Notes: a model not told the origin generated them from the sequence alone. Shown: positions 14,140-59,128, counted from the first letter of the stretch. The stretch: 64,000 nucleotides of DNA from a virus (IMGVR_UViG_3300045988_180675:96001-160000); one strand, 5' to 3'. Translations and numbers: made by a program.

Positions 14140-14164
14140 ATTATAGCATATAACAGTATATATA
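14140..14164 (-). promoter_or_regulatory. type-B promoter, copy B1 (TGnTATAAT plus B-box)
   Basis: Minus strand: TTGTTA-N17-TGCTATAAT. The spacer contains ATATACTGTTATAT. Confidence 0.65.
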
Positions 14165-14171
14165 ACAAGAC

Positions 14172-14197
14172 AAAGAATAGAGTATTCCCTATTCTTT
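14172..14197 (-). terminator. hairpin overlapping the stop codon (weak terminator)
   Basis: Stem AAGAATAG/CTATTCTT with an 8-nt loop. The U-tract is poor. Confidence 0.4.
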
Positions 14198-14809
14198 TGA
14201 CATATATTTTTTGATGTCTATATAATCTTCTACGACTTTTTCTTTTTCCGTAATTTCGGCTCTAAGAGCATCCATTTCTTCATTTATCTCTATGAGTTGT
14301 TTCTTAATTTTCTCTTTTTCAATAGATTCAGTTTGTAGTTCTTCGATTCTTCTTTGTAACATCTTTATCTTCGGTTCGAGATTGATCATCCAAATATTCT
14401 TGTCAGATAACATTTTACTGAAATCACTAATTTCTTTTTGGATCTTTTCAATTTCTTCTGAACCTTTTGTAGCGAACTTGTATTCAGGAGAATCTGTTAT
14501 TTCTTCCAGTGTTTTTCTCTTTAGTACAATTGTGGCTTTGCACTCGGTTACATGACAACTCCTTTCTTCAACGGTATCAAGAACGAAGTTGAAATCTGTA
14601 TAGATGTTCTCAAGTGCGATCTTAAACTCGATAACATCTTTTAATTGTGCATAAAAAAGTATTTTTGCTCCATCAAATATCTTTTGTTCGTAATGTTTAT
14701 CTTCTAAGTAGTTGTGACCTACGATATTTTCGTAATGTGAATGATCGACAATGAGCGGACAAACACCTCGCTCTTTTGCTTTTCTCAAAAAATTTATATC
14801 TATGTTCAT
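14189..14809 (-). CDS. hypothetical protein with C-terminal coiled coil (206 aa)
   Basis: ATGA start/stop overlap with the RecG-like gene. K/E heptad-rich C-terminal half. Confidence 0.65.
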   Translation of the reverse strand: MNIDINFLRKAKERGVCPLIVDHSHYENIVGHNYLEDKHYEQKIFDGAKILFYAQLKDVIEFKIALENIYTDFNFVLDTVEERSCHVTECKATIVLKRKTLEEITDSPEYKFATKGSEEIEKIQKEISDFSKMLSDKNIWMINLEPKIKMLQRRIEELQTESIEKEKIKKQLIEINEEMDALRAEITEKEKVVEDYIDIKKYMSKE

Positions 14810-16836
14810 TTATTTGTTCCCTCTTTCTTTTTCTTCTTTTTATCCTTGTAAAGTTCTTCTAACTCTTCATGTTCCTTGTATTCTGCAATAAGGAAATTTC
14901 CGATGTTTTTCTTGATGCATTCTTCTGCCAGCTTTGCAGCCTGTTGAAATAGTTCTGGATTATCCAGCATTTCTTCTACAAACTTGTTAATTCCAGATTG
15001 ATTTTGCCCGATTAAGTCTCCTGTTCCACGTTGACGAAGATCCGCTTCTGCGATCTTAAATCCATCGTTTGTCGCTACCATTGTCTGTAATCGCTCGTTA
15101 TCGGCTTCTTCTGCAATTAAGTAACAATAAGATTGATATGACGATCTGCCTACACGACCTCTTAGCTGGTGAAGTGTTGCTAGTCCGAACCGATTTGCCT
15201 GTTCAACAACCATAACAGTCGCAGATGGAACATTTACACCAACTTCTATTACAGTTGTAGAAATTAGAATATCACAAGTGTGATTATTACTATCTGCAAA
15301 AGCTGATATTGTCTTGGCAACATCTGTTGACTTCATTTTCCCATTTACGACTCCCACGCCAATTCCTCTAGGAGCGAAAAAATCTCTGTATAACTTACTC
15401 ATCTGCTCAATGCTGACAATATCTGTATTGTCATTATCTTCAATTGCAGGGCATACTACGTAACATTGATGACCAGCCTGTATTTGCTCTAGTATAAGAT
15501 TAAATACCTCGTTGTGTTCATCCGAAACCTTTGTGATGATCGGAAGTCTTCCTGCTGGTTTCTGTGTGATCAGCTTAATTTCTTTTCCTTGTCCGTATAG
15601 AACGTTTGCCATTGTACGTGGAATTGGAGTAGCAGACATAGAGATACTATGTACTCCATCCTTAGCCTTCTTGATCAGGGATTCTTTTTGTTCCACGCCA
15701 AATAGATGTTCTTCATCTGTAATAACTGATCCAAGATTATGGTAGACTACATCACTAGAAATGCAGGAGTGAGTTCCTATAATGAAATGAATTTCTCCAG
15801 ACTGGATTCTATTTAAAATTTCGTTTCTTTCTTTTTTAAGAAGTTTGCTATGTAAAAATACACAATTCAAACCGAACCGTTTTGCATATTCAGAGATTTC
15901 TTCATAGTGTTGTCTTGCCAAGATTTCTTTTGGAGCCATCAACACAGACTGGTATCCATTCTCAGCCGAATAAAACATCATTGCAGCGGCAACAATCGTT
16001 TTCCCACATCCAACATCACCTTGCAACAAAATGTTGTTTCTAATGCCGTTTCTGGCGTTTAAAAATATCTCATTTAAGATTGCTGCTTGTCCGCCTTGCC
16101 CTTGTGTCAAAGCAAATGGTAAAGATCTTATAAAGCTCTGTGTTAAAGACCAACTCTTATATTTTAAAGATGTGTTCTTGGGGGTTTCTACCCTATTTCT
16201 CTTTAGGGATAAATTAAAGTAAAGAAGATCATTGAAAAGAATTCTTCTTTTTGCCTCTTCTTCTATTTGTTTGTTTTGCGGATCATGAAGAACTTGTAAT
16301 GCCTGTTTATATGGCATAAAACCAGCAATAAGATGTGGTTCAACAATTTCTTGTTGCATTAACATGAAGTTTTCTCTGATTTTAGCTATTTCTTTTTCGT
16401 CTGCATCCTTTAATGATGGATATACTGTATGAGTATGAGGCTGATATTGGCTTGCTAAATAGATGCCTGTTACATCTACAATAGAATATCCATATTCGTC
16501 ATATTTTGGCTCTCCACATACAACAACATCCTTACCAGAGAAGCTGGCATACATGTTTAGTAGGAATACATTATTAAATAGCACGACTTTATAATCCATA
16601 CTGCCCTTGAAATAAAAAACAAGATAGGTCTTTCCAGTTGCCATTCTCTTCTTTTGTACGCTCACCTGTTTTCCAAGAACCGCACAATGACCATTTGCCT
16701 GCTGAATATCTAATGGCTTTCCGTATCGAATCGCTTTACGTGGGAAGAACTCTAAAAAATCTCTTACTGTAAAGAGGTGTTTTTTATTGAGTGCCGCCAG
16801 TGTTTTTTCTGAGATATTTAATCTTTTTAGATCCAC
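14806..16836 (-). CDS. RecG-like SF2 DNA helicase
   Basis: Motifs GDVGCGKT, MAPKEILARQH, DEEHLFGV, SATPIPRT, QLRGRVGRS. The track start ATG at 16863 overlaps the -10 hexamer of promoter B2. The GTG at 16836, preceded by GAAAGGA at 9 nt, is the more plausible start. Confidence 0.85.
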   Translation of the reverse strand: MDLKRLNISEKTLAALNKKHLFTVRDFLEFFPRKAIRYGKPLDIQQANGHCAVLGKQVSVQKKRMATGKTYLVFYFKGSMDYKVVLFNNVFLLNMYASFSGKDVVVCGEPKYDEYGYSIVDVTGIYLASQYQPHTHTVYPSLKDADEKEIAKIRENFMLMQQEIVEPHLIAGFMPYKQALQVLHDPQNKQIEEEAKRRILFNDLLYFNLSLKRNRVETPKNTSLKYKSWSLTQSFIRSLPFALTQGQGGQAAILNEIFLNARNGIRNNILLQGDVGCGKTIVAAAMMFYSAENGYQSVLMAPKEILARQHYEEISEYAKRFGLNCVFLHSKLLKKERNEILNRIQSGEIHFIIGTHSCISSDVVYHNLGSVITDEEHLFGVEQKESLIKKAKDGVHSISMSATPIPRTMANVLYGQGKEIKLITQKPAGRLPIITKVSDEHNEVFNLILEQIQAGHQCYVVCPAIEDNDNTDIVSIEQMSKLYRDFFAPRGIGVGVVNGKMKSTDVAKTISAFADSNNHTCDILISTTVIEVGVNVPSATVMVVEQANRFGLATLHQLRGRVGRSSYQSYCYLIAEEADNERLQTMVATNDGFKIAEADLRQRGTGDLIGQNQSGINKFVEEMLDNPELFQQAAKLAEECIKKNIGNFLIAEYKEHEELEELYKDKKKKKKEGTNK

Positions 16837-16861
16837 AACTGTTATCCTTTCTATACTATAC

Positions 16862-16885
16862 ATTATAGCATATAACAGTATATAT
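16862..16885 (-). promoter_or_regulatory. type-B promoter, copy B2
   Basis: Minus strand: ATATACTGTTATATGCTATAAT (extended -10). Confidence 0.65.
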
Positions 16886-16889: not shown

Positions 16890-16920
16890 AGAAAAAGAAA
16901 AGAGAGGATTTAACCTCTCT
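16890..16920 (-). terminator. intrinsic terminator with the stop codon in its loop
   Basis: Hairpin AGAGAGG-ATTTAA-CCTCTCT (16901-16920), followed by a T-rich run. Confidence 0.7.
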
Positions 16921-19090
16921 GTAATAAATGTGCGAGTCCTGTTGTTCTCATGATGCACTTGTTTGAAACAATACCTTTTTCCAAAGCATTCCCTTCTGAA
17001 ATAATGATATTCTTTTGCTTTGCTCTTGTAATTCCAACGTAAACAAGACTTCTTTCTAACATCCCTTTTGGTTTTTGAGGTAGCAATATTAGTGAGGTAT
17101 CGCATTCTGAACCTTGTGATTTGTGGATCGTAATCGCATACGCTAGAGCTATATCTTCCAGATTTTCTCCATATACCTGAAAGATCGTTCCATCATATAA
17201 TTGGATTTCTACAACTGGAGTTATATAGTTTTCAAAATGGAAAATATTCACGATTTTTCCTTCGTCTCCATTCAGATACCCAACCTTATAGTTATTTGAT
17301 AACATAATGACTTTATCACCTTTTGAAAAAGTGGTTTTATTAAACACAATGGATTCTTCTTGCCTAAAGTTCAGCATATTATGTATCTGGTTATTAAGGT
17401 TAAAAGTGCTGACAGGGAACTTTTCTTTTTTGATCGGTGAGTAAAGCTTTATATTGTACTTACTAGCATCTGTAGACTTCATCAAATCGATCGTTATCTG
17501 GTTCATTTCATCTTGGTCCTTAGCTCTGATGATTCTAAATGTATCATCTTCTAATAGATCACATCTTCCTTGTCTGATTCGTATACTATTCTCAATAATG
17601 GCGGAGCCTTCTTGTTGGCGGTAAACATTTGTTAAACGAACAAAAGGTATTTTTTGGGACTTCATAAAATCATGTAATACATTTCCTGCCCCCACAGAAC
17701 CCAACTGGTTTTCATCTCCAACGATTAGTAACATTGAACCCTGTTTGATTCCTGTTAATAACATAGAGCAAAGTTCATTATCTACCATAGAAAATTCATC
17801 AGCAATAATCAAATCATAATCCAATTGGTTATGCTCATTATTGTATTGGATAATTTCATTTTCTCCAAAAGGTCTGATATCAAGTAATTTATGAATCGTT
17901 TTAGCATCATTCCCTGTTACCTGACGAATACGTTTTGCAGCCGTTCCTGTTGGAGCAGTCAATGCGATTTTTGCATTAGGGAACATCTTTCGATAGTAAT
18001 GTAGTAAACCGTTAATAACAGTTGATTTCCCTGTTCCTGGACCGCCTGTTAAAATAGCAATCCCTTCTTTTTGCATGAGCGTAAATGCACGCTTCTGTTG
18101 TTCGTCGTATTTGATTCCGCATTCTTTCTCTATCTCTTCAATAATCGCTTCTTTTGGTTTTATAAAACGTCTATTACTGATTAAACGAACCACATTTTCC
18201 TGAATCTTCTTTTCAAATTCGTAAACTTTTCTATGGTAAACATAGATCTGATTATCAAATACCTCAAACTTAAATTTATCTGGTCTATTTAAGATAATTG
18301 CCAATATGTGTAGTGGGCTTGTTCTGTATCCTATCTTTGTACTTTCTTCGATGTATTCTGCCATTGAGAAAAAATTTGTTAATGTGATACAGGTATCTCC
18401 ACGCCTATCTAACGTGGTAAATACTTCTCGGATCAAAGCATATACCCGAATCGGATCACTGGCTATAAATCCCTGTTTTTTGGCTAAAGATTCTCTTTGT
18501 GCAAAAGTTAATCCTGCTTTAAAAAGTATGTAAGGGTTCTTTTTTACAATAGATAAGGATCTATTTCCATATTTGCTATATATTGATTTGGCTCCAAGAT
18601 AACTTCCCCCAGCAGATGTAATAAAGTCAACAAGTTCTTGCATATCTGAATATTGATTGATTTTATTTACAAAACTTTTGGCAATACTATCATTTATTCG
18701 TGGAATCTTTGCAAGCTGTTCTATGGCATCTGGTGATTTACAAAAAGAAAAAATATCGCCATTGCTTAGGTTTATGATTGCGGAAGCAGCTGCGGTTCCA
18801 ATATTAGAGAATTTTCCACTGCTTAAAAAGGATAATGTTGTAGTGTCATTTTTGCTTAGTGGCTTACACTTGCTTGATATAAAGATGTTTCTACCATTTA
18901 TAACTTCGATATTGCCCTCAAGAAAGACTGGCGTACCAGTATCCAAGTCGGTAGCAATTCCTTTGCATAATACCGTGTTGTATTGAGGGTCTAATGGAAT
19001 CGTTTTATCTTCTGTTGAAACAGAAAAATATGTCATTCCTGATAATTCATCTTTTCTAATGACCTTTTGCAGAACGCCGTAAAACTCCAT
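16910..19090 (-). CDS. RecD2-like SF1B helicase (726 aa)
   Basis: GGPGTGKST, IIADEFSMVD, LIVGDENQLGSVGAG, TIHKSQGSE, YVGITRAKQK. SH3-like segment GDKVIMLSNNY. Confidence 0.85.
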   Translation of the reverse strand: MEFYGVLQKVIRKDELSGMTYFSVSTEDKTIPLDPQYNTVLCKGIATDLDTGTPVFLEGNIEVINGRNIFISSKCKPLSKNDTTTLSFLSSGKFSNIGTAAASAIINLSNGDIFSFCKSPDAIEQLAKIPRINDSIAKSFVNKINQYSDMQELVDFITSAGGSYLGAKSIYSKYGNRSLSIVKKNPYILFKAGLTFAQRESLAKKQGFIASDPIRVYALIREVFTTLDRRGDTCITLTNFFSMAEYIEESTKIGYRTSPLHILAIILNRPDKFKFEVFDNQIYVYHRKVYEFEKKIQENVVRLISNRRFIKPKEAIIEEIEKECGIKYDEQQKRAFTLMQKEGIAILTGGPGTGKSTVINGLLHYYRKMFPNAKIALTAPTGTAAKRIRQVTGNDAKTIHKLLDIRPFGENEIIQYNNEHNQLDYDLIIADEFSMVDNELCSMLLTGIKQGSMLLIVGDENQLGSVGAGNVLHDFMKSQKIPFVRLTNVYRQQEGSAIIENSIRIRQGRCDLLEDDTFRIIRAKDQDEMNQITIDLMKSTDASKYNIKLYSPIKKEKFPVSTFNLNNQIHNMLNFRQEESIVFNKTTFSKGDKVIMLSNNYKVGYLNGDEGKIVNIFHFENYITPVVEIQLYDGTIFQVYGENLEDIALAYAITIHKSQGSECDTSLILLPQKPKGMLERSLVYVGITRAKQKNIIISEGNALEKGIVSNKCIMRTTGLAHLLQRG

Positions 19091-19111: not shown

Positions 19112-19138
19112 ATTATCTTAGCATATACTGTTATATAT
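19112..19138 (-). promoter_or_regulatory. type-B promoter, copy B3 (inverted B-box)
   Basis: Minus strand: TTGTAA-N17-TGCTAAGAT(AAT). The spacer contains ATATAACAGTATAT, which is the box in the opposite orientation. Confidence 0.55.
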
Positions 19139-19145: not shown

Positions 19146-19175
19146 GAAAAACAGGACTAATCAATGTCGTCCTGT
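19146..19175 (-). terminator. intrinsic terminator overlapping the stop codon
   Basis: Stem ACAGGAC/GTCCTGT with an 11-nt loop, followed by TTTTTC. Confidence 0.65.
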
Positions 19176-21640
19176 TCTTCTTCTGTTTCTTCCTTTTCGC
19201 CTTGTGACTTTGCTAAATGTTCTGAAAACAAATCTACTAACCGAGTATTTCTGATCCGATCTGGATTTTCTAAAGCAAGCTTCAAAGCCTCTTCATTTCC
19301 ATATAAACGGATCTTCTGTTTAGCTCTTGTAATTCCTGTGTATACTAAATTTCTACTCAAGAATGAACCCATGTAAATCAGATTTGGCGGGAGTGCCAAT
19401 AGGATATTCTTGTACTCAGATCCTTGCGATTTGTGAATCGTTAATGCATACGCAAGTTGAAGATGTTGTGCCTTTTCTGGATCCAACCAGAAACGTCGCC
19501 CATCATCTGTTTCAAATCCAATATATTTATCTTCGTAATTGATATCAAAGACATATCCAACGTCACCATTGTAGATTCCTTTTCCGTTCTTTTTGTTTAG
19601 GTGATCATGTCTTGTTCCATATCCATTGACACAATAATATCCATTATCGTATGTGTGATAAGAAAATTCTTCCGTGTTAAAATTGACGGTCATCATAACT
19701 CTGTCGTACAGATATATTTTTTGCCCAGACTCTGTTTTTGTTGGAATTGCCTTGCCCTTATTATCTCCATTATATTTCTCTTGTAATAATTTATTCATTT
19801 CTTTAACAAAAGCATTTGTAGGAGCAAGAATAATTGTCTTCTTTGGATCAAAACCAACCTGATATTTGATATCTTCTGCATCGACTGGATCAATCCCCTC
19901 CATAATAAAGTCGTGGTAATCACTTTCTATTTGATTTACTAATGCCGTATTATCATTTGTTTTTGCTCCCCACATAAAAGAGTTATCTACAAATAAAAGT
20001 TTGTTGATATCGCCTTCATTAACAATATCCCAGTTATTTGCAAGAGATGGAATATCTTTCGCTCTGAAGTTTGTTGTTAATTTGGAACACTTGATACTTG
20101 TCTTCAATATATCCTTTAATATCTGCCCAGCTCCGATTGCTGGCAACTGATCAGGATCGCCAACAAATACAACTTGCATGTTGAATATTCCATCTTCATC
20201 AGTTATGACCTTAAAGAACTTCGCAAGCGTTACGATATCGATCATTGATAATTCATCAATAATCAACATGTTATCATACACGGATTCACTTAAAAATTCT
20301 TCTCCACGTCTAATTTTATTTGTCATAGAAAGCATTGTTGCTGCGTGATATGGGAAGAATTCTTTATCAGTAGGATCTGTTTCATCATATAACTTATCTA
20401 CGTAATATCCACCCTTTTCTTCGATTGCTTCCTTGATTCTGCCAGTTGCTTTACCAGTGAAAGAAGTTAAAATGCTAGGATGGTTAAAATACTGTTGAGC
20501 AATATATGCAATACATGCAACTACAGTGGTTTTTCCTCTTCCTGGACCACCAGTAATTACAGACACTCTATTTTTGAATGCCTCATGGATTGCCGCTCGT
20601 TGCTCTTCACTGAATTTACCACTATGAGTTTTTTCTGCCCATTCATCTATGAATGTATTGACTTCATCTTCATTGTAAACCGTAAGTGGTTCTGAATTTT
20701 TTAAATTGGCTAGAGTCTTTGCTACGAAGTTTTCGGCTTCTGTCAATCTTTTAAATTCTACAATACCACGACTAACGCCATCCTTAATAATCTTCTTTAA
20801 TTCTACATGCTCATGCTTGCCAAGAGTTTTAAAGGATTCTTTTATTGCAGCTGCATCCATTCCAGATAAATATTTTGCAGCTACCTGTTGCCAATTGTGT
20901 AGATTACGAGAATCACTTAAATCAAGGTATGTATCCCCATTACAGAATGAAAGTAATGTTTCTTTTGCTGCAAGCCATATTAAGCCTTCAACACGGATCT
21001 TGTCTTCTGGTTCTCCACCTGAACGACTCCAGATCTGATCTGCCATTGATGGAGTTAAAGAAGTTTCAAAAGATGCTTCAAAAGGATTCTGTTGCAATTT
21101 TAATATTACTTTTTCTCCATAAGTGTCGATCAACTCTTCGATCAATTTCTTTTTTCCAGATAATACAGGGAAAGTTGCGGAAATACTGCTGGTAATATCT
21201 ATAGAATAAAAATATTCTTTAATAGCCTGCTTTTGTTTTTCTCCAATTCCCTTGATCTTCTCGATTTCTTCTGGATCCAATAAAAGCGTTTTAATTGCAG
21301 TTCTTCCTAAGTGTTTGAAGATCTTTTCGGCTGTAACTTCTCCAATACCATCAAAATCTTCACCTGAGAAGAACTTTATAATATCATCTTTAGTATTTGC
21401 ATTAGGAAAAATACCAATAATAGAATATACGTCAGACTTTCCTGCTTCGCTTTTGATTTGATATGCACCTAAAAAAGAACTACCACTTTTTAAATGGTGC
21501 CCACTTGTTCCGTTGACCATTACCTTTTGTGGGAATCTTAGTTTGGTATCTGTCATATTTGCAATACAACCAAACCAACCATCTGGTTTTGGACAATCTT
21601 TATACATTTTTAGGACTTTAAATTCTGCGATATTCAACAT
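19157..21640 (-). CDS. RecD2-like SF1B helicase (827 aa), paralog of 16910..19090
   Basis: GGPGRGKTT, LIIDELSMID, VFVGDPDQLPAIGAG, TIHKSQGSEY, YTGITRAKQK. Confidence 0.85.
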   Translation of the reverse strand: MLNIAEFKVLKMYKDCPKPDGWFGCIANMTDTKLRFPQKVMVNGTSGHHLKSGSSFLGAYQIKSEAGKSDVYSIIGIFPNANTKDDIIKFFSGEDFDGIGEVTAEKIFKHLGRTAIKTLLLDPEEIEKIKGIGEKQKQAIKEYFYSIDITSSISATFPVLSGKKKLIEELIDTYGEKVILKLQQNPFEASFETSLTPSMADQIWSRSGGEPEDKIRVEGLIWLAAKETLLSFCNGDTYLDLSDSRNLHNWQQVAAKYLSGMDAAAIKESFKTLGKHEHVELKKIIKDGVSRGIVEFKRLTEAENFVAKTLANLKNSEPLTVYNEDEVNTFIDEWAEKTHSGKFSEEQRAAIHEAFKNRVSVITGGPGRGKTTVVACIAYIAQQYFNHPSILTSFTGKATGRIKEAIEEKGGYYVDKLYDETDPTDKEFFPYHAATMLSMTNKIRRGEEFLSESVYDNMLIIDELSMIDIVTLAKFFKVITDEDGIFNMQVVFVGDPDQLPAIGAGQILKDILKTSIKCSKLTTNFRAKDIPSLANNWDIVNEGDINKLLFVDNSFMWGAKTNDNTALVNQIESDYHDFIMEGIDPVDAEDIKYQVGFDPKKTIILAPTNAFVKEMNKLLQEKYNGDNKGKAIPTKTESGQKIYLYDRVMMTVNFNTEEFSYHTYDNGYYCVNGYGTRHDHLNKKNGKGIYNGDVGYVFDINYEDKYIGFETDDGRRFWLDPEKAQHLQLAYALTIHKSQGSEYKNILLALPPNLIYMGSFLSRNLVYTGITRAKQKIRLYGNEEALKLALENPDRIRNTRLVDLFSEHLAKSQGEKEETEEEQDDID

Positions 21641-21663: not shown

Positions 21664-21687
21664 ATTATATCACATAACAGTATATAT
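21664..21687 (-). promoter_or_regulatory. type-B promoter, copy B4
   Basis: Minus strand: ATATACTGTTATGTGATATAAT. SD GAAAGGA lies 16 nt after the -10. Confidence 0.65.
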
Positions 21688-25500: not shown

Positions 25501-26202
25501 CTAGCCTCTCATATTGTTAAACTGAGAAAAGAAATCATACTCTTCTCCATCTGTTAATGTAGGATCTGGAGCGTTTGCGATATCATCTTCTGAGATTACT
25601 TCACTTGTTTCTTCTACTGCCTTTACTGGAGCAGCTTGAACTACTGTTGGTTCCTGCTTTACAATAGGCTTTTCAACAACTGGTTGTTTAGCTTCATCTT
25701 TATCTTCCGTGCTGTAATCTGGTAACTTTTCAACTCTAACAGGAGCTTTCTTCTTTGGCTTTAAGATATCGTCAATTGTGATACGCTTATTCTTTTTAGG
25801 TTCAAGTAATACAACATTCTCTAAGCCTTCCAGACGTATCAATTTAATGCGTTCTGTCTCCTTCTTGATAGTTGTATCATTTCTTAGAAATACGGCTATC
25901 TGTGGCGTTAAAAGGCATGATCTAACAAGTGTTTTAAAGAATGCTGTACGCCAACCTTCCTTGATTTCTCTTTTGAGAAAATCGACGCTTTGTTTATCCT
26001 TGACTTCGAATAACAAGTGATATGTACGTTTTTTCTCTTTTAGTGTAAATGGAATGGCGTTAGGAACAACAAAGGTAATTTGTTGTCCTCTAACATAATA
26101 TTCCAACGCCTTCTTCATTAGCATTGTAACGGATATTCCATTTGCATTTAATGAAATAAGATCTGCGTCATAATTCTTATAAAGCTTTAATTCAACTCTC
26201 AT
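25501..26202 (-). CDS. hypothetical protein; candidate ParR-like adaptor for the ParM-like ATPase
   Basis: 233 aa, directly downstream of the actin-like gene. Short N-terminal beta-alpha segment (MRVELKLY...), then a low-complexity P/E/K/V tail. The function is positional inference only. Confidence 0.3.
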   Translation of the reverse strand: MRVELKLYKNYDADLISLNANGISVTMLMKKALEYYVRGQQITFVVPNAIPFTLKEKKRTYHLLFEVKDKQSVDFLKREIKEGWRTAFFKTLVRSCLLTPQIAVFLRNDTTIKKETERIKLIRLEGLENVVLLEPKKNKRITIDDILKPKKKAPVRVEKLPDYSTEDKDEAKQPVVEKPIVKQEPTVVQAAPVKAVEETSEVISEDDIANAPDPTLTDGEEYDFFSQFNNMRG

Positions 26203-28966: not shown

Positions 28967-29149
28967 TCACGCTTTCTTCATGTCTTCTTCAACTAAATCG
29001 ACAAAGTATCCGTTTAACGATTTGTTTCGCTTTTCCTTTGCAAACTTTTTGATCTTATCACGTTGCCCTTTTTTTACTGTTAGACAAATACGATCGTATG
29101 TCTTTTTATTGTATTCACGGGCAATCTCTGTTTTATTACTTCTTTTCAT
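28967..29149 (-). CDS. ribbon-helix-helix (CopG/Arc-like) DNA-binding protein
   Basis: 60 aa. RICLTVKKGQRDKIKKFAKEKRNKSLNGYFVDLV matches a strand-helix-helix pattern. First gene behind promoter B5. Confidence 0.6.
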   Translation of the reverse strand: MKRSNKTEIAREYNKKTYDRICLTVKKGQRDKIKKFAKEKRNKSLNGYFVDLVEEDMKKA

Positions 29150-29176: not shown

Positions 29177-29198
29177 ATTATACCATAACAGTATATAT
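29177..29198 (-). promoter_or_regulatory. type-B promoter, copy B5
   Basis: Minus strand: ATATACTGTTATGGTATAAT. SD AGGAGAAAAAAC precedes the ATG. Confidence 0.65.
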
Positions 29199-30329: not shown

Positions 30330-33300
30330 TTAAGACATTTTCGTTACACCACAAATCTCATTTACTTTTGAAGAAACTGTGAATCCTAACTTCTCAGTCT
30401 GCTTTGTTTCTACATTGTAGATATAAACAGTATTGCCAAAGTCTTCTTTCATATTTTCCAATTCTTGCATACTAATTGCATTTGAATGGACTAAATATGT
30501 TCCATTCTTCTTCTTAGCTTCGAAACATTTTTGTAATGTGAATTTGTATTCAGCATCTAATGCCTCTCCATCTTCATCTGAAGAATTGAAGTCATCTAAA
30601 TCTGTTTTACCAGAAAAGAGTAACACATTTCCTTCTTTAATGAATTGCTTATTTTGTTCGTATGCTTTTTGGAATACATTGACGTTTGCGGTTCCAGTTT
30701 GATCCTGAACAACAATGAATGCCATATCATTTCCAGTCTTCTTGCTCTGTCTAATCTCAACATTTGTAATCAAACCGAAAATCATTGTTGTATTTGCATC
30801 CATATCACTGATCGGAGTAGCAGATAGTTCCTCTGGTCTACCATAATTGTCTAATGGACTTCCTGAAACATAATATCCAAGAACTTCTTTTTCGTCTGCC
30901 AACTTTTCTTCTGTTGTTTCAATTACAGGAGTAATTGTCAATGACTCAAAAGCTGTTCTTAATCCGATAACTGCTTCTTTTGCTCTTTCTAAAGACTTTT
31001 GCAACTTATCTTCTGTTGCTAGTTTCTTTAGTTCAACATGTAATCCGAGTTCCTTTTGCTTTTCAACTAACTCTTCATCACTGCCACATAAACAAAGTTT
31101 AGGTAAAATCTCTGTTACTGTCTGGATGTAAGTTTCTTTCTTTGCAAGTTTTGCATAAGTTGTCTTGAAAGCATCATAACTATCCAACATTGCCTTACGA
31201 CTTACATTGAAATCATCTAATGCTCCCGCCTTGATCAAGTTGATTACCGATGTCTTATCTGCCTTACTACGAGCTATAAAGTCGTGGAAAGAAGTATAAG
31301 GGGCATTTTCAACAATTGCCTTGGCAGCTGACGCAACTTCTTTTACAGATGCTAGACCAAATAGGATCTTGCCATCATGGACTGTGAATTTGCTCTTAGA
31401 GTAATTTACATTTGGTGGTAACACCTTTACACCGACTTCATGAGCTTCAATCAGAAGTTCTGGAAGTGGGTCCTTGGCTTGCGTTTTTTCAGCCCAGTTC
31501 ATTGCTCCAGCTAAAAATTCGGCTGGATACAATTCTTTAAGATAACCAGAAACATAGCTGTTATAAGCGTATGCTGCGGCATGCGACTTATTAAACGCAT
31601 ACTTAGCGAAGTTAGTCATTTCATCAAACAACTTACTTGCTGCATCATAGTTGATTCCATTTGCAACACATCCACGGATACCTCTATCTGGATCGCCTTC
31701 AATAAAAGCATGACGTTCTAGTTCTAGCTTTTCCATCTTCTTCTTAGACATGTATCGGCGAACCATATCGGCTCCGCCAAGTGTATATCCAGCTAATTTT
31801 TGGAAGATCTGCATAACCTGCTCTTGGTAAGCAATGGCTCCATACGTCTTGCCCAAGATAGGCTCTAGTTCTGGAGTTAGATATTGCACTGGCTTTCTTC
31901 CATGCTTGACATCCATTACGCTATCCAAATATTGCATTGGTCCTGGTCTAAACATTGAAACAAGAATAATCAGATCCTCGAAAGATGATGGTTCAAATCT
32001 CTTCAGCATCTTCTTCATTCCCTTACTTTCAAACTGGAATACAGAGTTAGTATGAGCCTGTGCAAATACCTTCTCAAACGTTTCCTTGTTGTCTAGCGGG
32101 ATTCTATATGGCTCTGGATTGATTCCACGTTCCTTTAATTTCCATTTGCAATCTGTAACGATGTCCAATGTTTTTAATCCTAAGAAGTCGAACTTTAGCA
32201 TTCCGTTTTCTTCAACTTCGATCATATTACATTGGGTCGTGTAGATTCCTAATTTACTGTTGTAACGTAAAGGTACGATTTCTTTTACTGGAGTTCCATC
32301 TGTGATAACAACACCAGCTGCATGAGATCCATATGCTGTACAACAGTTTTCAAAAACCTTAGCCCATTTAATAATCGTATTTGCAGTTTTATCATCTGCA
32401 AACTTCTGAATCAGGTCAGCGTATAATGTGATTTCTGCTCCGTTAGGATCTTGCTTTTCAAGTTTCGTGTTAAACCCTAATCCTGGCTTAGATGGGATTG
32501 CCTTAGCAATCTTGTCGGCTAGTGATAAGAATCTTCCTCGATAACTTTCATCATTGTTCTTATAAGCCAAAAAGAAGCCATAAGAACGTGCTGCTGCACG
32601 AATTGCTCCTCTAGGAGCTTGTGCATTTTGTGTCATGATTCCAACTACGCAATCTTCACCATACTTCTGCTTTACGTATTCGATCGTTCTAGGACGGATC
32701 GTGTTGCTGATATCAGAATCAATATCTGGAAGTGATACACGTTCTGGATTTAAGAAACGTTCAAACAAGAGTTCAAATCTGATCGGATCCAAGTGGGTAA
32801 TGCCTAGTAATTGGCAAACGAGTGATCCTACAGCAGAACCACGTCCAGTTCCATTTGCGATACCGACAGGAGTAGTAAATCCTCTTTCAAGCTTCCAAGC
32901 TCGTAACGCTTCTTTTTCGATCGGAGCGTTTTCGATTTCTTCTGGTGGAATACTATCGTATTCAGCTGCATAGCGATTAAAGTCCTGCACCACCAAATGG
33001 TAATCGACATACCCCATCTTTTTGATGATCTCGATTTCACGATTCAATCTTTCTTGATACTCTGCTGGTAACCCAGCTGGATATAAGCGATTGATTCCAT
33101 CTTGAAGTTCTTTCATGAATACATCATTTGTATACTCTTCTGATTTTCCTTTAAATACCTTTGGAAAGTGATTTGTAATTTTGAAGTCTACATTGCATAT
33201 ACCTGCAATATATAAAGTATTATCAAATGCTTCTTCAATGACATCATCTTCAAAAACATGTGAGAACATAGCTCTCATTTCTGGCGTTGTCTTAATGTAG

Positions 33301-34502
33301 AGTTCTCTGTCTGCATCTTGCAGTGGTTCCCACTTTTCAAATCGTAAACTCTTCATAATCATTCTCTTTAATAATTCCTCGTTGGAGTTTGTTACCGTGT
33401 GTACATCATTTGCGGCAACAAGAGGAATATTCATAGAACGTGCTAGATTTACGATCTTATTGTAGATAACTTTTTCTTCTTGCATTCCATGGTATTGGAT
33501 CTCAGCAAAGAAGTTGTCTTGACCAAAGATGTTGTTAAAAAATTCCATCTCTTTACGAGCTTCTTCTAACATCTCTTCTTCTGTCTTTTTCTTCTTTTCT
33601 AATTCCAATATTTTTTCATTGAATACAGAAGATTTTTCTGCATCTACAGTTTTCTGCTTTAATTCTTTCTTTAAAATAGAGATTCTTGTTCTAAGCTTTT
33701 TGATTTCCTCTGTTAGTACAGGGATCTTTGCTTTGGCATCTTCTACTTCAGCCTTATCACTTTCGATACGTTGACGTTCTGCCTCAGCCATAAGCTCATC
33801 CATAGAAACTAAAATCTTTTCTCGTGCAGAGAACTTGATTTTGGATAATTTCTTCATCTTTTCTAATTCAGACTTCTTTTCTTTTAGTTGTTGATTTAGA
33901 TTGTTGAATTTATCTTCAACGAGAGATAAATTGCTTACATTTGAAGAAATACCTCCTTTTTCCATGGCTCTTCTGATTTTAGCGATTTCTCTTTCTACAA
34001 ACTCATTTGATCGAAAAACCGTTGCGATAACACCACTAATACAAGCTGATGTAGCGATAACGTTGTTATTTCCCAAGAAATACTTGTTGAGAATTTCGTC
34101 ATTCATCAGACAGTATCCGTTTTCACGTTGACCATCTGAAATAGCCATGCTGATCGTCTTCCAACCTTCATCATTTTTAGCATGTAAGATCAGATGCTTT
34201 TCTGGCTCAAGATTATTTTTTTGCATCAGCCCATTCTCTTTGTAGGCTGTGTGCTGGAAATAAGTCTCGATTCCAGGCACAAACTTTAGTCCATACTTCT
34301 TTGCGGCATTTTTAAAATCCCACGTCATAGCAGCCACGCCATGCTGTGTTAAAAATACCGTTTTTCTTCCGATATCACTTAATCTTTTGCAAACATCTTC
34401 GGCTGGATTATCGCAATCAAAAATATCTTTTGAATGCAAATGTGTTTCTTCATAATCTGAGATCTTTTTCATCTCTTCTATTACTTTAATTCTTTCGTTC
34501 AT
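30330..34502 (-). CDS. dnaE: DNA polymerase III alpha subunit, DnaE-type, with a coiled-coil insertion in the PHP domain
   Basis: 1390 aa. PHP motifs THLHS, LTQHG, PGIETY, HLILHAKNDEGW. Core GRGSAVGSLVCQLLGITHLDPIRFELLFERFLNPERVSLPDIDSD. C-terminal OB segment (MIFGLITNVEIRQSKKTGNDMAFIVVQD). Confidence 0.9.
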   Translation of the reverse strand: MNERIKVIEEMKKISDYEETHLHSKDIFDCDNPAEDVCKRLSDIGRKTVFLTQHGVAAMTWDFKNAAKKYGLKFVPGIETYFQHTAYKENGLMQKNNLEPEKHLILHAKNDEGWKTISMAISDGQRENGYCLMNDEILNKYFLGNNNVIATSACISGVIATVFRSNEFVEREIAKIRRAMEKGGISSNVSNLSLVEDKFNNLNQQLKEKKSELEKMKKLSKIKFSAREKILVSMDELMAEAERQRIESDKAEVEDAKAKIPVLTEEIKKLRTRISILKKELKQKTVDAEKSSVFNEKILELEKKKKTEEEMLEEARKEMEFFNNIFGQDNFFAEIQYHGMQEEKVIYNKIVNLARSMNIPLVAANDVHTVTNSNEELLKRMIMKSLRFEKWEPLQDADRELYIKTTPEMRAMFSHVFEDDVIEEAFDNTLYIAGICNVDFKITNHFPKVFKGKSEEYTNDVFMKELQDGINRLYPAGLPAEYQERLNREIEIIKKMGYVDYHLVVQDFNRYAAEYDSIPPEEIENAPIEKEALRAWKLERGFTTPVGIANGTGRGSAVGSLVCQLLGITHLDPIRFELLFERFLNPERVSLPDIDSDISNTIRPRTIEYVKQKYGEDCVVGIMTQNAQAPRGAIRAAARSYGFFLAYKNNDESYRGRFLSLADKIAKAIPSKPGLGFNTKLEKQDPNGAEITLYADLIQKFADDKTANTIIKWAKVFENCCTAYGSHAAGVVITDGTPVKEIVPLRYNSKLGIYTTQCNMIEVEENGMLKFDFLGLKTLDIVTDCKWKLKERGINPEPYRIPLDNKETFEKVFAQAHTNSVFQFESKGMKKMLKRFEPSSFEDLIILVSMFRPGPMQYLDSVMDVKHGRKPVQYLTPELEPILGKTYGAIAYQEQVMQIFQKLAGYTLGGADMVRRYMSKKKMEKLELERHAFIEGDPDRGIRGCVANGINYDAASKLFDEMTNFAKYAFNKSHAAAYAYNSYVSGYLKELYPAEFLAGAMNWAEKTQAKDPLPELLIEAHEVGVKVLPPNVNYSKSKFTVHDGKILFGLASVKEVASAAKAIVENAPYTSFHDFIARSKADKTSVINLIKAGALDDFNVSRKAMLDSYDAFKTTYAKLAKKETYIQTVTEILPKLCLCGSDEELVEKQKELGLHVELKKLATEDKLQKSLERAKEAVIGLRTAFESLTITPVIETTEEKLADEKEVLGYYVSGSPLDNYGRPEELSATPISDMDANTTMIFGLITNVEIRQSKKTGNDMAFIVVQDQTGTANVNVFQKAYEQNKQFIKEGNVLLFSGKTDLDDFNSSDEDGEALDAEYKFTLQKCFEAKKKNGTYLVHSNAISMQELENMKEDFGNTVYIYNVETKQTEKLGFTVSSKVNEICGVTKMS

Positions 34503-34619: not shown

Positions 34620-34644
34620 ATTATATCACATATACTGTTATATT
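34620..34644 (-). promoter_or_regulatory. type-B element, copy B6 (inverted box), abutting the sigma stop codon
   Basis: Minus strand: ATATAACAGTATATGTGATATAAT. The -10 lies at 34620-34625, immediately upstream of the terminator hairpin. Confidence 0.5.
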
Positions 34645-35957: not shown

Positions 35958-35978
35958 TTTATACATATAACAGTATAT
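35958..35978 (-). promoter_or_regulatory. type-B promoter, copy B7
   Basis: Minus strand: ATATACTGTTATATGTATAAA. Confidence 0.55.
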
Positions 35979-44519: not shown

Positions 44520-44690
44520 CCAGTCAACTACCCACCACCTAAAGGTAGTGGGCTTGTAACTGCCCAGTCGTACTAGCGGCTTACGCCTCCGACCTTTAAC
44601 CCCAATGAGCATTGCTACTCAAAGTGGCGTTACATCATAGGATGGTTGACACAACACCCTTTACGATAAAGTTTACTCTACCGTAACTGT
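44520..44690 (-). ncRNA. candidate omega-RNA (reRNA) scaffold of TnpB
   Basis: GC-rich, hairpin-dense ~150 nt that overlaps and follows the tnpB 3' end in an otherwise AT-rich window. This is the position expected for TnpB guide-RNA scaffolds. Confidence 0.5.
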
Positions 44691-45812: not shown

Positions 45813-45983
45813 AAATAAACCTTATTGTCCTTTCATTAAATATAGTATATACTATTATTAGTGAAAGTCAACAACTTTGAGGGGATTCAACTAAGGTTGA
45901 TACTTACAAACTTATAAGGCTCCTCCCCCGCCCAATGGCAGTGGGTTTCCGCAGATAGAATAGGGAGGACTTTATTTATAAAA

Positions 45984-46011
45984 GAAAAGAAAAAGACTAT
46001 TTATCTAGTCT
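45984..46011 (-). terminator. intrinsic terminator overlapping the stop codon
   Basis: Hairpin AGACTA-TTTATC-TAGTCT (45994-46011), followed by a T-rich run. Confidence 0.7.
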
Positions 46012-47030: not shown

Positions 47031-47055
47031 ATTATCTTGCAATATACTGTTATGT
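47031..47055 (-). promoter_or_regulatory. type-B promoter, copy B8 (inverted box)
   Basis: Minus strand: ACATAACAGTATATTGCAAGATAAT. Confidence 0.5.
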
Positions 47056-50847: not shown

Positions 50848-50862
50848 TATATTATGCTATAT
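50848..50862 (-). promoter_or_regulatory. type-C promoter, copy C4
   Basis: Minus strand: GCATATAGCATAATATATC (CATAAT at 50851-50856). GCTTGT-TTTTC-ACAAGC hairpin immediately upstream (50863-50879). GTTGT-AAAA-ACAAC hairpin in the leader. Confidence 0.45.
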
Positions 50863-55372: not shown

Positions 55373-55390
55373 TTATATTATGCTATATTT
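55373..55390 (-). promoter_or_regulatory. type-C promoter, copy C5 (T4SS operon)
   Basis: Minus strand: AAATATAGCATAATATAAG (CATAAT at 55377-55382). Leader hairpin at 55352-55373. Confidence 0.45.
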
Positions 55391-55441: not shown

Positions 55442-58400
55442 TTACTTAGATTCCTTCTTTTTCTTCTTGCCAATTACGATACCGAAACCAGCTAGAGCTG
55501 TTGCTACTAATGCTCCGATACCAACCTTAGCAACTGTATCATCTGAAGATTCTTCGCTCTTCTTCTCTTCTGTAGCGACATCCTTCTTGTTGTCGTTCTT
55601 CTGAGTTTCTGTCTTTTTATCATCAGACTTCTTTGCATCCTGCTTATCGTTCTTGCTATCCTTTGATGCTTCCTTTTGCTTATCGGATGCCTTCTTTTCA
55701 TTCTTTTCAACCATTGCGTCTGTACCAACGGACTTGTTTGTTGCACTTTCGATTTGACGTGCTGCCTGATTAGCTAACTCAGCTTGACGAGCTGCTTCTG
55801 CTTTTTGAGCCGCTTCTGTAGCGACACGAACGTTGTATGCTGCAAGTTCACGGATGTAGTTTGCTTCAGCCTTAGCTGCACGTGTTGTAGCTTCTTCAAG
55901 AGCTTCGTTTGCTTCCACTAAAGCTTGCTTTGCAGTTGCTAATGCCGCACGAGCCTTTTGTACTGCTTCGATATAAGGATTCACTGTAGAAGCGAATTCT
56001 GGATCACTTACTAAGGTATTGAATGTTTCATCGAATGTAAATGCGTTTGTACGGTCTGCCTTAGCACGAGCTTCTGTTGCCTTAGTTGTTAATTCTACTA
56101 GAGCATCCATAGCCTTTGTATGTGCTGCCTTAGCATCTTCGTAAGCCTGAGCCTTCTTAGCTGCTTCTGCCTTGGAATCTTCTAATTCCTTAACCTTAGC
56201 ATCGTATGCTGCTACCTTATCAGTAAGAGCCTTCAATGCAAGTTCAGCATTTGTAAGATCAGTTGTCTTAGCCTCTAGTGTAGATTGAGCTGTTGCTAAC
56301 TCGTTTGTCTTTGTATCAACATTTGCCTGAGCTGTGTTACGAGCTGCTACTGCATCGTTATAAGCATTTGTGGCATCATTCAATGCGTTCTGCTTCTCTT
56401 CAACGACTTTTTCACTAGCCTTCTGAACTTCCTTCGCATCGGCTACAGCCTTGCGTAGAGCCTTCATTTCTTCAACGCCTACCATAGAGTCAACTACTGC
56501 TGTCTTTGCAGATAAGTCGTCATCAGCAGTCTTTGCATCTGCTTCTGCATTCTTACGTTCTGCAACCTTTGCATCATATACGCCCTTTGCTGCATCGTAT
56601 GTGGATTGAGCTGTTACTGTTTTAGCCTTTGCTGCATCATGTGCCAACTTCGCACTGTCACGAGTTGCTTTTGCTGCCTCTAATTCACTCTTAGCATTTT
56701 CTAATGCTGTTGTAGCATCTGTTAATACCTTCTGAGCATTTGTAAGTGCTGTATTTGCTTCAGCCAACTTCTGTACTGCTGCATCGTATGCTTTTTCTTC
56801 AGGTAATACTTCACGTTCACCTAGAGCTGGTTCACCCTTATATGCATCACGAACTGTTACTGCATCGTTATACTTCTTATTTGCTTCGTCTAACTTAGCG
56901 TTTAACTTCGTTGTATCTACAGTATCCATATATTCATCGAATAGACTTGTGAACTCTGCAATTGTATAAATCTTTTCAGCCTCTGGACCATTTCCTTCGG
57001 TGCTTGTTGAGAATGTCTGGCTGAATGTAATACCATAAGAATCTAACTGATCTTCAGTATATTTCTTTTCTCCGCCAACCTCAACAAACTTTTGTAGCTG
57101 TTGGTCATAAACCATCTTGCCACGCTTGTTGGCTACTGTACTACGTCCGATACCTGTCATGATGTAATTTCTATTTACTGCGTTTGTGTAATGACCTGTT
57201 TGGATATTGAAGAACTTCTTCTCATTCTTTGCATAATTTGTCCAAGCATTCTCGAACGCTGTCTTTTCTGGACCTCTCTTAGTGATGTTTACACCAGGAT
57301 GTTCTGCCAAATACTTAGCTGTAAATTCTTGTAATGCTTCCCAAACAACCTTTTCCTCTTCGTACCAACCCTTGTTAGGATCTGCATAGCCCCATGCTAA
57401 GTTTTCACCCATATTGAAGTGTCTTGTGTGTCCATTTGCTGGGTTTGCTGAGTTGTCTGCATTAGAGATTGCTGTAGCCATCATGTAGAATGTTGTGCCT
57501 AATGGATCTAATCCTGTAAAGTGTTCATCATGTACACGCTGTTCATTGTACTTAATTAAAACCTTTAATGCTTCCTTAACGTTGCGTAAGCTTGTAGCAT
57601 CATTTTCATCGCCCACAATCATTCCTGCTGGGTACTGATGTAGAGCCTTTACGGCACGCTCAATGTCTTTTAATGTATTTTCATCGCCAGCAAATTTTGT
57701 CTTTGCCCAACCTAAGAATCCTTCAAAGCCCTTCTTCACTTGTTCGCTTGCATTAGCGATTTTCTGAGAGATGGCATTCTTTTCTGTATCTGCATCTGTA
57801 ACGTCCTTATTTAACTTCTCACGCTTAGCTGCTTCTGTTGCGGCACGGTTTGTTTCATAATCCTGACGTTCCTTAGCCTGTTTTTCAAGAGCCTTGTTCT
57901 TTTCTGTTTCCTTAGTGTTGACATCACTCTTAGCGTTTTCGACATTGTTCTTTGCTGTATCTACAGAAGTTGAAGCACTATTCTTTTGAGCTTCCTTTTC
58001 GGATGCAACAGATTCTTTAGTAGAAACATTTGCGTTTTCTGCATCTAATGCATTCTTCTTTTCTGCTTCTACACTCTTCTTATCATTTAAGATGGATTCC
58101 TTTGCGTCAGCATCCTTCTTTGCTTCTGCTTCAGCAGTCTTCTTCTCTTCAACCTTTTCATGAGCCTTTGCAGATTCTTTTTCTGCATTTAGCATAGCCT
58201 TGTATTCATCAGTTTCAAGGACATCCTTGCCACCATTCTTCTCTAATGCCTTACGAAGATCATTTTCCTTTTCTGCTGTTACTCCCTTATCGCTATTTAA
58301 CTTAGCGTTGGCATTTTCTAAATCTGTATTAGCGGAATTCTTAGCGTTTTCCTTAGTAGTAACATCGTTAGTCTTCTCTTCTAATACTGCCTTAGCATCA

Positions 58401-58948
58401 TTTAAAGCGTTATTTGCTTCTGTTACTGCTCCTTGTGCAGAATCCTTGTTTGCCTTTGCTGTATCTACATTTGATGTAGCTGTATTGATCTGCTCTTCTG
58501 ATGGCTTCTCAGCGTTTGCTGCTTCTACTTCTGCTGTTTTTGTTTCTACAGTAGCCTTAGCGTTTTCAGATGCAACCTTAGCATCTTCTTCAGCCTGTTT
58601 TGCGTTTTCGATCACAGTAGGCTGGTTCTTTGCTGCTTCCTCTGCTGCCTTAGCGTCTGCTTCTGCATTAGCCTTCATGTCTACAACTGCCTTGTGAGCG
58701 TCTTCTTCTGCCTGCTTAATAGAGCTTTCTGTTTCTGTTACTGTGTTTGCCGCACTCGTTGCATTTGCTTCTGCTGTAGCCTTTTCTGCATCTGCATTAG
58801 CCTTTACTGCTGTTGCTGTATCGAGTGCTGCCTGTGTTCCTGTTGCTTGTTCATTTGTTTCCTCTGCGAATGTTGTTGCTGTTGTTGCAGCGATTGAAGC
58901 TGCTGCTGTTGCTGTGATAACTGCTGTCTTAACTAATTCCTTTTTCAT
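55442..58948 (-). CDS. alanine-rich coiled-coil surface protein with an internal CAP/SCP domain (1168 aa)
   Basis: Signal peptide. Long A/E/K coiled coils on both sides of a CAP-like core (HFNMGENLAWGY ... TGHYTNAVNRNY). C-terminal TM plus KKKKKESK and no LPXTG. Confidence 0.7.
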   Translation of the reverse strand: MKKELVKTAVITATAAASIAATTATTFAEETNEQATGTQAALDTATAVKANADAEKATAEANATSAANTVTETESSIKQAEEDAHKAVVDMKANAEADAKAAEEAAKNQPTVIENAKQAEEDAKVASENAKATVETKTAEVEAANAEKPSEEQINTATSNVDTAKANKDSAQGAVTEANNALNDAKAVLEEKTNDVTTKENAKNSANTDLENANAKLNSDKGVTAEKENDLRKALEKNGGKDVLETDEYKAMLNAEKESAKAHEKVEEKKTAEAEAKKDADAKESILNDKKSVEAEKKNALDAENANVSTKESVASEKEAQKNSASTSVDTAKNNVENAKSDVNTKETEKNKALEKQAKERQDYETNRAATEAAKREKLNKDVTDADTEKNAISQKIANASEQVKKGFEGFLGWAKTKFAGDENTLKDIERAVKALHQYPAGMIVGDENDATSLRNVKEALKVLIKYNEQRVHDEHFTGLDPLGTTFYMMATAISNADNSANPANGHTRHFNMGENLAWGYADPNKGWYEEEKVVWEALQEFTAKYLAEHPGVNITKRGPEKTAFENAWTNYAKNEKKFFNIQTGHYTNAVNRNYIMTGIGRSTVANKRGKMVYDQQLQKFVEVGGEKKYTEDQLDSYGITFSQTFSTSTEGNGPEAEKIYTIAEFTSLFDEYMDTVDTTKLNAKLDEANKKYNDAVTVRDAYKGEPALGEREVLPEEKAYDAAVQKLAEANTALTNAQKVLTDATTALENAKSELEAAKATRDSAKLAHDAAKAKTVTAQSTYDAAKGVYDAKVAERKNAEADAKTADDDLSAKTAVVDSMVGVEEMKALRKAVADAKEVQKASEKVVEEKQNALNDATNAYNDAVAARNTAQANVDTKTNELATAQSTLEAKTTDLTNAELALKALTDKVAAYDAKVKELEDSKAEAAKKAQAYEDAKAAHTKAMDALVELTTKATEARAKADRTNAFTFDETFNTLVSDPEFASTVNPYIEAVQKARAALATAKQALVEANEALEEATTRAAKAEANYIRELAAYNVRVATEAAQKAEAARQAELANQAARQIESATNKSVGTDAMVEKNEKKASDKQKEASKDSKNDKQDAKKSDDKKTETQKNDNKKDVATEEKKSEESSDDTVAKVGIGALVATALAGFGIVIGKKKKKESK

Positions 58949-59099
58949 TTCCTTTTCCTCTTTCTTTCTAACTTTTTTAACTACTTCACAACATATATTA
59001 TATACGAAGATTTGATATAAATATACAGTGTTTTTTCGTTATTTACTTGTAAAAGTTTTATTTTCTTCCTTTCTTTTTTCTACTTCCTTTACAACTATT

Positions 59100-59128
59100 A
59101 TTTTATCATAACAGTATATATAAGTCAA
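59100..59128 (-). promoter_or_regulatory. type-B promoter, copy B9, with canonical -35
   Basis: Minus strand: TTGACT-N17-TAAAAT. The 17-nt spacer ends in the extended -10 TG (TGATAAAAT) and contains ATATACTGTTAT. Confidence 0.65.

Follow-up and report, generated by a model that had tools for sequence, protein, structure and literature searches.

In a 64,000-nt stretch of DNA catalogued as viral (IMGVR_UViG_3300045988_180675:96001-160000; below, the window), a box with the 10-bp core ATACTGTTAT recurs in nine predicted promoters, and this recurrence is highly non-random. The box may well be the operator of a sequence-specific repressor encoded by the element itself, with a 60-amino-acid (aa) protein of the ribbon-helix-helix (RHH) type as the most likely binder. 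That a protein binds at the box, that its effect is repressive and that it is this RHH protein we infer from sequence comparison.

An earlier note on this DNA had described nine copies of a 14-bp box, used in both orientations, and all nine are present at those positions and in those orientations. The long open reading frames (ORFs) of the window all lie on the minus strand. Relative to these genes six boxes are forward and three are reversed: read on the minus strand, ATATACTGTTAT.. is found at 14148, 16870, 21672, 29183, 35965 and 59106, and its reverse complement at 19123, 34630 and 47042. The boxes are given below, with their counterparts in two related loci: L008, from a 194-kb contig that is syntenic with the window, and L132, whose RecD2 is 84% identical.

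Box 1, 14148..14161, minus strand: forward, in the spacer of TTGTTA(14168-14163)-17-TGcTATAAT(14145-14140); heads a small-gene operon (14077..12345); counterpart in L132 at 11715.
Box 2, 16870..16883, minus strand: forward, then gc and TATAAT (16867-16862); promoter for the RecG-like helicase (14806..16863) together with a 206-aa gene; its orthologue in L132 has the opposite orientation.
Box 3, 19123..19136, plus strand: reverse to the genes, in TTGTAA(19143-19138)-17-TGcTAAGAT(19120-19115); promoter of a RecD2-like helicase (16910..19090); counterpart in L132 at 6738, reverse as well.
Box 4, 21672..21685, minus strand: forward, ending in ..ATGT, then TGaTATAAT (21669-21664); promoter for the second RecD2-like helicase (19157..21640), with an intrinsic terminator immediately upstream; counterpart in L132 at 4202.
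Box 5, 29183..29196, minus strand: forward, ending in ..ATGG and abutting TATAAT (29182-29177), and with TTCCAA where a -35 would stand; promoter for the RHH-led operon with an S26 peptidase, ParM and a ParR-like gene; counterpart in L008 at 16557.
Box 6, 34630..34643, plus strand: reverse, followed by gTGaTATAAT (34625-34620); between the stop codon of the sigma-like gene and DnaE, as the first of two tandem promoters of DnaE (30330..34502); same orientation and spacing in L002/L008.
Box 7, 35965..35978, minus strand: forward, holding the -10 TATACT (35977-35972) of TTTACA(36000-35995)-17-TATACT; promoter of a small ORF and the sigma-70-family gene (34646..35752).
Box 8, 47042..47055, plus strand: reverse, beginning with ACAT.., its last base being the first T of TTGCAA(47042-47037)-17-TAAAAT(47019-47014); promoter of a 79-aa and a 246-aa gene; counterpart in L008 at 223.
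Box 9, 59106..59119, minus strand: forward, ending in ..ATGA, in the spacer of TTGACT(59128-59123)-17-TGaTAAAAT(59105-59100); promoter of a 1168-aa surface protein (55442..58948).

The set of genes named before (both RecD2-like helicases, the RecG-like helicase, the ParM operon, the sigma-like gene and a surface protein) is correct, and DnaE and three small-gene operons are added to it here.

The excess of the box over chance is large. When up to two mismatches are allowed, the 14-mer has 10 matches in the window against 1.15 expected, and none of 100 shuffles gets to 10. The 10-bp core has nine perfect copies, all of them in non-coding DNA, which makes up 5.9% of the window (P ~1e-11); copies with one mismatch number seven, which is the chance expectation. 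In an unbiased count of 10-mers, ATACTGTTAT is among the most recurrent words, together with the ribosome-binding site and one other motif. A tenth, weak site at 30272 was discounted: it is not kept in L008 and is part of another inverted repeat, TGCTATA..TATAGCA.

The conserved unit of the box is ATACTGTTAT[A/G]. Positions 13-14 are variable, as are positions 1-2 at two extra sites beyond the window. The ACTGT centre is unvaried across 26 distinct site sequences while their flanks differ; these sites were chosen by the exact core, with one-mismatch cores at chance level. Such constancy speaks against a protein-free origin, in which a single promoter cassette would have been copied, or AT-rich spacers would simply give strong promoters. 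An origin of this kind could draw on the 3' end of the box (TATG), which overlaps the Gram-positive TRTG '-16' motif, and on the T-rich upstream tracts that the box promoters share. However, both orientations are used, and the box has been kept since the proteins diverged to 36-49% identity, so that we regard this explanation as very improbable.

At seven of the nine sites the promoter predicted from the sequence has a TGn-extended -10 element (TGcTATAAT, TGaTATAAT, TGgTATAAT, TGaTAAAAT or TGcTAAGAT). The spacer is 17 bp wherever a -35 hexamer can be called (TTGACT at box 9, TTGTTA at box 1 and TTGTAA at box 3), and the over-long spacer of 19-20 bp of the MerR type was not seen at these sites. 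All nine boxes lie inside the predicted footprint of RNA polymerase; however, their geometry is not uniform. The earlier note had every box in the spacer of an extended -10 promoter, at a fixed distance from the -10. The placement is right for the seven sites but not for 35965, where the -10 lies within the box, nor for 47042, where the box abuts the -35, and the fixed distance has to be given up, as the gap between core and hexamer is 2, 4 or 6 nt depending on the site. At box 7 a downstream TATAAA is not kept in the relatives but TTTACA-17-TATACT is, with a spacer that has diverged in sequence and is unchanged in its length of 17 bp. Box 8 has a GATAAT without TG, and instead a conserved TTGCAA-17-TAAAAT with TATGG (the TRTG motif) upstream.

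In general the core promoters appear to be of the host sigma-A type (TGnTATAAT; TTGACT, TTGACA, TTGTAA or TTTACA at 17 bp), and the boxes usually stand just after a terminator. Just beyond the window are two further boxes, one preceding an SSB gene and the other a SecA-like gene. They lie within the 17-bp spacers of TTGACA-/TTGTAA-type promoters and retain the core alone. Two promoters on the plus strand were considered and rejected: one for the reversed box 3 (TACAAT, with a 70-aa antisense ORF downstream), which is not kept in L132, and a perfect match, TTGACA-18-TATAAT at 14197-14226, which is not conserved there either.

The related loci separate the box from its surroundings. Proteins of L008 are 36-98% identical to those of the window, with the sigma-like protein at 49%, and its boxes at the orthologues of boxes 5, 6, 7 and 8 are conserved islands amid diverged intergenic DNA. 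L132 has boxes at the orthologues of boxes 1-4. Taken together, box and core promoter form a conserved island at eight orthologous promoters, with diverged flanks. The RecG promoter has its box in forward orientation in the window and in reverse orientation in L132, and in each case 2 nt and TATAAT follow; this natural swap shows two orientations that appear to be interchangeable at one promoter. The conserved islands and the RecG inversion with equal spacing suggest that the box is recognised by a trans-acting protein that would work in either orientation, most simply a repressor standing in the way of RNA polymerase. Further, the position of the box varies (2, 4 or 6 nt from the hexamer, over the -10, or at the -35), which steric repression would tolerate but a sigma contact or an activator of fixed geometry would not.

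This bears on the possibility that the box is a positive promoter element, forming a promoter class with the -10 and serving the sigma-70-family protein of the element or an activator. A box stands in front of the sigma gene itself, an arrangement that would be similar to positive autoregulation, the -35 hexamers are weak in several box promoters, and the reverse box ATATAACAGTATAT agrees with an element-specific motif, ATATAGCATAATAT, at 11 of 14 positions. On the other hand, the box is used both ways round and is flipped at one orthologous promoter. Its gap to the -10 ranges over 4 nt; the box at 35965 covers the -10, and the one at 47042 stands before the -35. The -10 elements are textbook sigma-A TGnTATAAT, three sites having TTGACT, TTGACA or TTGTAA at 17 bp, and lineages with identical boxes share only 49% identity in the sigma-like protein. 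Another motif, CATAATATA, is conserved superfamily-wide and is a better fit for the element sigma. A positive element is improbable in general, and a role of the box as specificity element for the element sigma is unlikely.

The box had also been described as an imperfect palindrome and, from its use in both orientations at a fixed distance from the -10, as an operator for a dimeric repressor rather than a polymerase contact. The conserved islands, the varied position relative to -35 and -10 and the inversion at RecG agree with an operator. The dimer part is less secure: the distance is not fixed, and the invariant centre is asymmetric, with symmetry confined to the ATA..TAT arms or the ACnGT core, so that no convincing dimer palindrome is left in the core. 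With 10-14 bp the box is in the size range of RHH operators; their inverted repeat of the form 4-N5-4 is absent from the boxes.

Three proteins encoded in the window are candidate binders:

28967..29149, minus strand: 60-aa RHH protein, of Arc/AmrZ type by profile; the best candidate for a box-binding repressor.
59157..59345, minus strand: 62-aa XRE/Cro-type protein with a clear helix-turn-helix (HTH) domain; alternative candidate, upstream of box 9.
25501..26202, minus strand: 233-aa protein in the ParR position after ParM; second alternative candidate, 89.7% identical in L008.

The first two had been proposed before, and the RHH protein is now favoured, on its Arc/AmrZ profile, its 96.6% identity between the window and L008 and its occurrence, among the loci fetched, in box-bearing lineages only. 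An exhaustive search with the protein gave 294 related cluster representatives. The profile of a 60-member family matches Arc (E 1.4e-5), AmrZ (E 7.9e-5, with the strand region included) and pArc. Pfam Arc (PF03869) is matched by 12 of the 60 members, and others match NikA, TacA, HicB or RepB regulators. The family alignment has the RHH pattern, namely a strand YDRIxLxV, a glycine turn and two helices, and its variable residues are at the predicted DNA-facing positions. In its operon this gene comes first after box 5: the box at 29183-29196 lies 36 nt upstream of its start codon and overlaps its promoter, and in the 61 bp upstream of the gene the box, the -10 and the ribosome-binding site are the only conserved items. 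The two nearest diverged neighbours of the protein are 43% and 36% identical. Among the loci fetched, a hidden Markov model (HMM) of the family finds members only in box-bearing lineages, and in four box-less relatives the syntenic ParM operon is without this gene and is preceded by an element-specific CATAAT-type motif.

Several observations pull the other way. Searched as a single sequence, the 60-aa protein matches neither Pfam nor NCBIfam, and its AlphaFold model is of low confidence (pLDDT 60) and has no beta-strand, so that the fold is not confirmed. ParM and the ParR-like protein are 98% and 90% identical in L008, and the conservation of the RHH protein may therefore be partly regional. 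For the co-occurrence of RHH gene and box, the loci compared were partial, 15-22 kb long. The invariant core is asymmetric and does not have the 4-N5-4 inverted subsites of Arc and CopG operators, and there is one box per promoter, while many RHH repressors need several adjacent subsites.

If the binder is not the RHH protein, the box could still be a repressor operator, bound by the XRE protein, by the ParR-like 233-aa protein or by a protein encoded beyond the 64-kb window. The XRE protein has its clear HTH domain, and Cro-like dimers would go well with 14-bp operators whose arms are AT-rich. However, its own promoter (TTGTAA-17-TATACT) has in its spacer a perfect palindrome, TATAGCA-N7-TGCTATA at 59373-59393, which is unique in the window and is probably the XRE protein's own operator; as the more natural XRE site it makes this protein less favoured for the box. 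The ParR-like protein is well conserved, and the window is without an iteron-type centromere, no tandem iterons having been found there. By eye its N-terminus has an RHH-like pattern, but it has no family match. Further, the element measures 160-208 kb, so the 64 kb covered here are a minor part of it. Against two HTH half-sites in general, the conservation of the box is one contiguous block, strongest at its centre, which better suits a beta-ribbon in a single major groove, judging by the solved DNA complexes of Arc, MetJ and CopG. We see a different binder as a rather doubtful possibility.

A host regulator could also bind the box and thereby put replication and repair functions of the element under the control of a host signal, for instance a response of the DNA-damage type. 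The genes behind the boxes include SOS-like functions (helicases, SSB, DnaE, with an SMC/RecN-like gene nearby), the core holds CTGT as do enterobacterial LexA half-sites, and the box is identical across lineages whose own proteins are strongly diverged. The enterobacterial LexA site is CTGT-N8-ACAG, and the LexA box of Firmicutes, GAAC-N4-GTTC, is unrelated to the box described here. At the nine sites there is a single CTGT per box, the second ACAG half-site at LexA spacing is absent, and there is no GAAC-N4-GTTC. Four relatives are also without the box in the loci compared, and a fifth, L133, has a different box in the same promoter position. Binding by a host regulator is unlikely.

These relatives are more distant (RecD2 41-43% identical) and share the ParM, S26, SMC, RecD2 and RecG modules; they were compared over partial stretches of 15-22 kb. 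The box is absent from these 15-22 kb loci in L134, L166, L167 and L168. L133 (51% G+C) has another box of 13 bp, TGTGGCACTCAT, located 2 nt upstream of TATAAT in two intergenic regions, and adjoining it is a divergently oriented 124-aa gene with weak RHH matches of the MobA/RelB type. From the four box-less relatives and the other box of L133 it follows that the box is a lineage-specific layer on conserved core promoters of the sigma-A type. This pattern is what a co-evolving pair of repressor and operator would look like. Here, too, one result does not fit easily, as hhalign gives a probability of 7% for a relation between the 124-aa protein and the RHH family, and the family HMM misses it.

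In L133, the stretches 5769-5934 and 9482-9678 contain several copies of a 13-bp quasi-palindrome, ATGAGTGCCACAT / TGTGGCACTCAT, on both strands and 2-13 nt upstream of TATAAT hexamers.

Beyond these loci, a scan of viral contigs with the bare 14-mer gave mostly chance matches, among the matches listed. A stricter scan for the box plus TATAAT in these contigs found only the same element (IMGVR_UViG_3300045988_178166) and chance matches. Seven apparent boxes in L147 were rejected: they are a 16-bp tandem repeat in an unrelated contig of 24% G+C.

Under the favoured explanation, an element-encoded repressor at the box, the mechanism would be simple. The box lies within the predicted polymerase footprint of all sigma-A-type promoters seen, except those of the XRE gene and of the insertion sequence, and a bound protein would block or destabilise RNA polymerase in either orientation of the box. 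The RHH gene, standing behind its own box, would be negatively autoregulated. The regulon would hold the two RecD2-like helicases, the RecG-like helicase, DnaE, the ParM operon, the surface protein, the small-gene operons and the sigma-70-family gene, and beyond the window the SSB and SecA-like genes.

One repressor acting on many promoter-embedded operators is a well-known principle; the element family is undescribed. In KorA/KorB of the IncP-1 plasmid RK2 and omega of the Inc18 plasmid pSM19035, a short operator is found at many promoters, of replication, maintenance and further functions, and the repressor is autoregulated, which suits a burst of expression on entering a new cell and then a shut-down. 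Omega is itself an RHH protein; its sites work in direct or inverted orientation, and it binds arrays of at least two 7-bp heptads. The present regulon is like these in having one short operator at many promoters. It differs in that no sequence relation to KorA/KorB is seen and that, in the window, omega WATCACW heptad arrays are absent and there is a single box per promoter. The setting is different as well, namely an element of ~160-208 kb from oral or gut Firmicutes metagenomes with its own sigma factor. The gp71 stoperators of mycobacteriophage L5 are asymmetric sites of ~13 bp, present in many short intergenic copies within transcription units, where one element-encoded repressor acts on them in an orientation-dependent way. 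As there, an asymmetric site is repeated across a mobile element; unlike there, the sites lie in promoters and are used in both orientations.

The candidate system also resembles those of Arc and CopG, which bind 13-bp elements overlapping promoters, the target of CopG being an extended -10 promoter (PMC2724298). P22 Arc (Pant/Pmnt) and pMV158 CopG (Pcr) combine a small RHH protein, a promoter-overlapping operator of ~13 bp and a repressor gene inside the regulated operon, and the same combination is a candidate here. However, Arc and CopG use two inverted 4-bp subsites 5 bp apart at a single locus, in contrast to a contiguous asymmetric core with one copy per promoter, at no fewer than 11 promoters (at least 11) across more than 55 kb.

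The element as a whole is probably a giant plasmid-like element, treated here as conjugative, that is misclassified under the IMG/VR 'viral' label, given its conjugation ATPase and sortase-anchored surface proteins. The window encodes a CD1110-type VirB4 ATPase (~35% identical to Firmicutes CD1110-type conjugation ATPases), LPXTG-type surface proteins, a large NlpC/P60 protein and a TnpB insertion, as well as DnaE, two RecD2-like helicases, a RecG-like helicase, an SMC-like ATPase, ParM, an S26 peptidase and the sigma-70-family protein. No phage structural family was matched by the window proteins scanned. Matches to the window are found in metagenomic contigs of 160-208 kb and in an IMG/VR contig of 178 kb. 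Against plasmid and phage collections, neither megablast of 22 kb of the window nor tblastn of the sigma-like protein gave a match, and scans for Rfam families and tRNAs had no result in the window. As to the host, a genome collection contained a single match, a 1.9-kb contig in the metagenome-assembled genome of an uncultured Solobacterium, which is a weak hint. The gene repertoire resembles that reported for the oral 'Inocle' elements (PMC12340149), a likeness in repertoire alone.

Behind box 7, the sigma-70-family protein (34646-35752, minus strand) matches TIGR02937 with E 1.4e-8, which is below the curated cut-off, and every top Foldseek match to its model is a sigma-A, sigma-S, sigma-B or sigma-32 chain. 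Among 5.8 billion proteins it has two related clusters (99% and 49% identical). A conserved ORF of 68-76 aa (35736-35966) overlaps the start of the sigma gene.

Two more recurrent intergenic motifs are found in the window, both on a CATAAT-type core without TG. The first, ATATAGCATAATATA, has five copies on the minus strand (30248-30256, 39719-39727, 44385-44393, 50849-50857 and 55375-55383), with no TG and no clear -35; they head an SSB-like gene, a four-gene operon, the 1528-aa NlpC/P60 protein, a 962-aa surface protein and a type IV secretion system operon. GCATAATAT has 5 copies against 1.2 expected. In the second, a CATAAT-type variant is followed after ~15 nt by a conserved leader, TTATTTGATGAnnnTGGAGAA, in eleven copies on the minus strand (937, 5491, 6265, 6741, 8016, 8589, 9410, 12286, 23852, 34535 and 47840), which precede mostly small genes without assigned function, the SMC-like gene and DnaE. 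This leader has no Rfam match, and a related leader is present in L134, L133 and L168. The CATAAT-type core recurs in all the distant relatives, for example as GGCATAATA in L134 and CAACCATAATATA in L167 (50% G+C). This suggests that CATAAT-type promoters may be read by the element's own sigma factor.

We put forward, tentatively, that the two promoter classes could form a phage-like programme in two tiers. Nearly all promoters readable by host polymerase alone, that of the sigma factor among them, would share the operator, the sigma factor would then read the CATAATATA promoters, and a ~180-kb element would have the RHH protein as its master switch. If so, the box and the RHH protein would control entry to the sigma-dependent programme, conjugation genes included, as the CATAATATA promoters head transfer, surface and accessory genes; such control would be comparable to prophage immunity. 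The element family, known from human-associated Firmicutes metagenomes, has no close relatives in the plasmid and phage collections searched, and nearly all its genes are unannotated. A defined operator and regulon would give a first handle on it: a set of genes read by the host polymerase, genes that are probably silenced together, and a small protein as candidate. The value lies in the annotation of a new element family, not in a new mechanism.

A few further observations concern single loci. DnaE has two tandem promoters, one of the box type and one of the CATAAT type, in both the window lineage and L008. A transcript from box 6 would start within a hairpin at 34556-34618 (minus strand; -15.2 kcal/mol, z -5.0) that is followed by a U-rich tract. 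This hairpin is probably the terminator of the sigma operon and comes after the box promoter, while in L008 the terminator comes before the box. A TnpB insertion at 44359-45996 (OrfB_IS605 with a Cas12f1-like TNB domain), with structured flanks, lies between the 246-aa gene and the NlpC/P60 promoter and is absent from the syntenic L008. A protein with a HipA_C-like kinase domain (36042-37316, minus strand; E 4e-6, below the Pfam cut-off) has no HipB-like neighbour. Finally, a 515-aa protein at 3857-5404 (minus strand) has a close homologue with a PARP-type ADP-ribosyltransferase domain, according to precomputed annotation.

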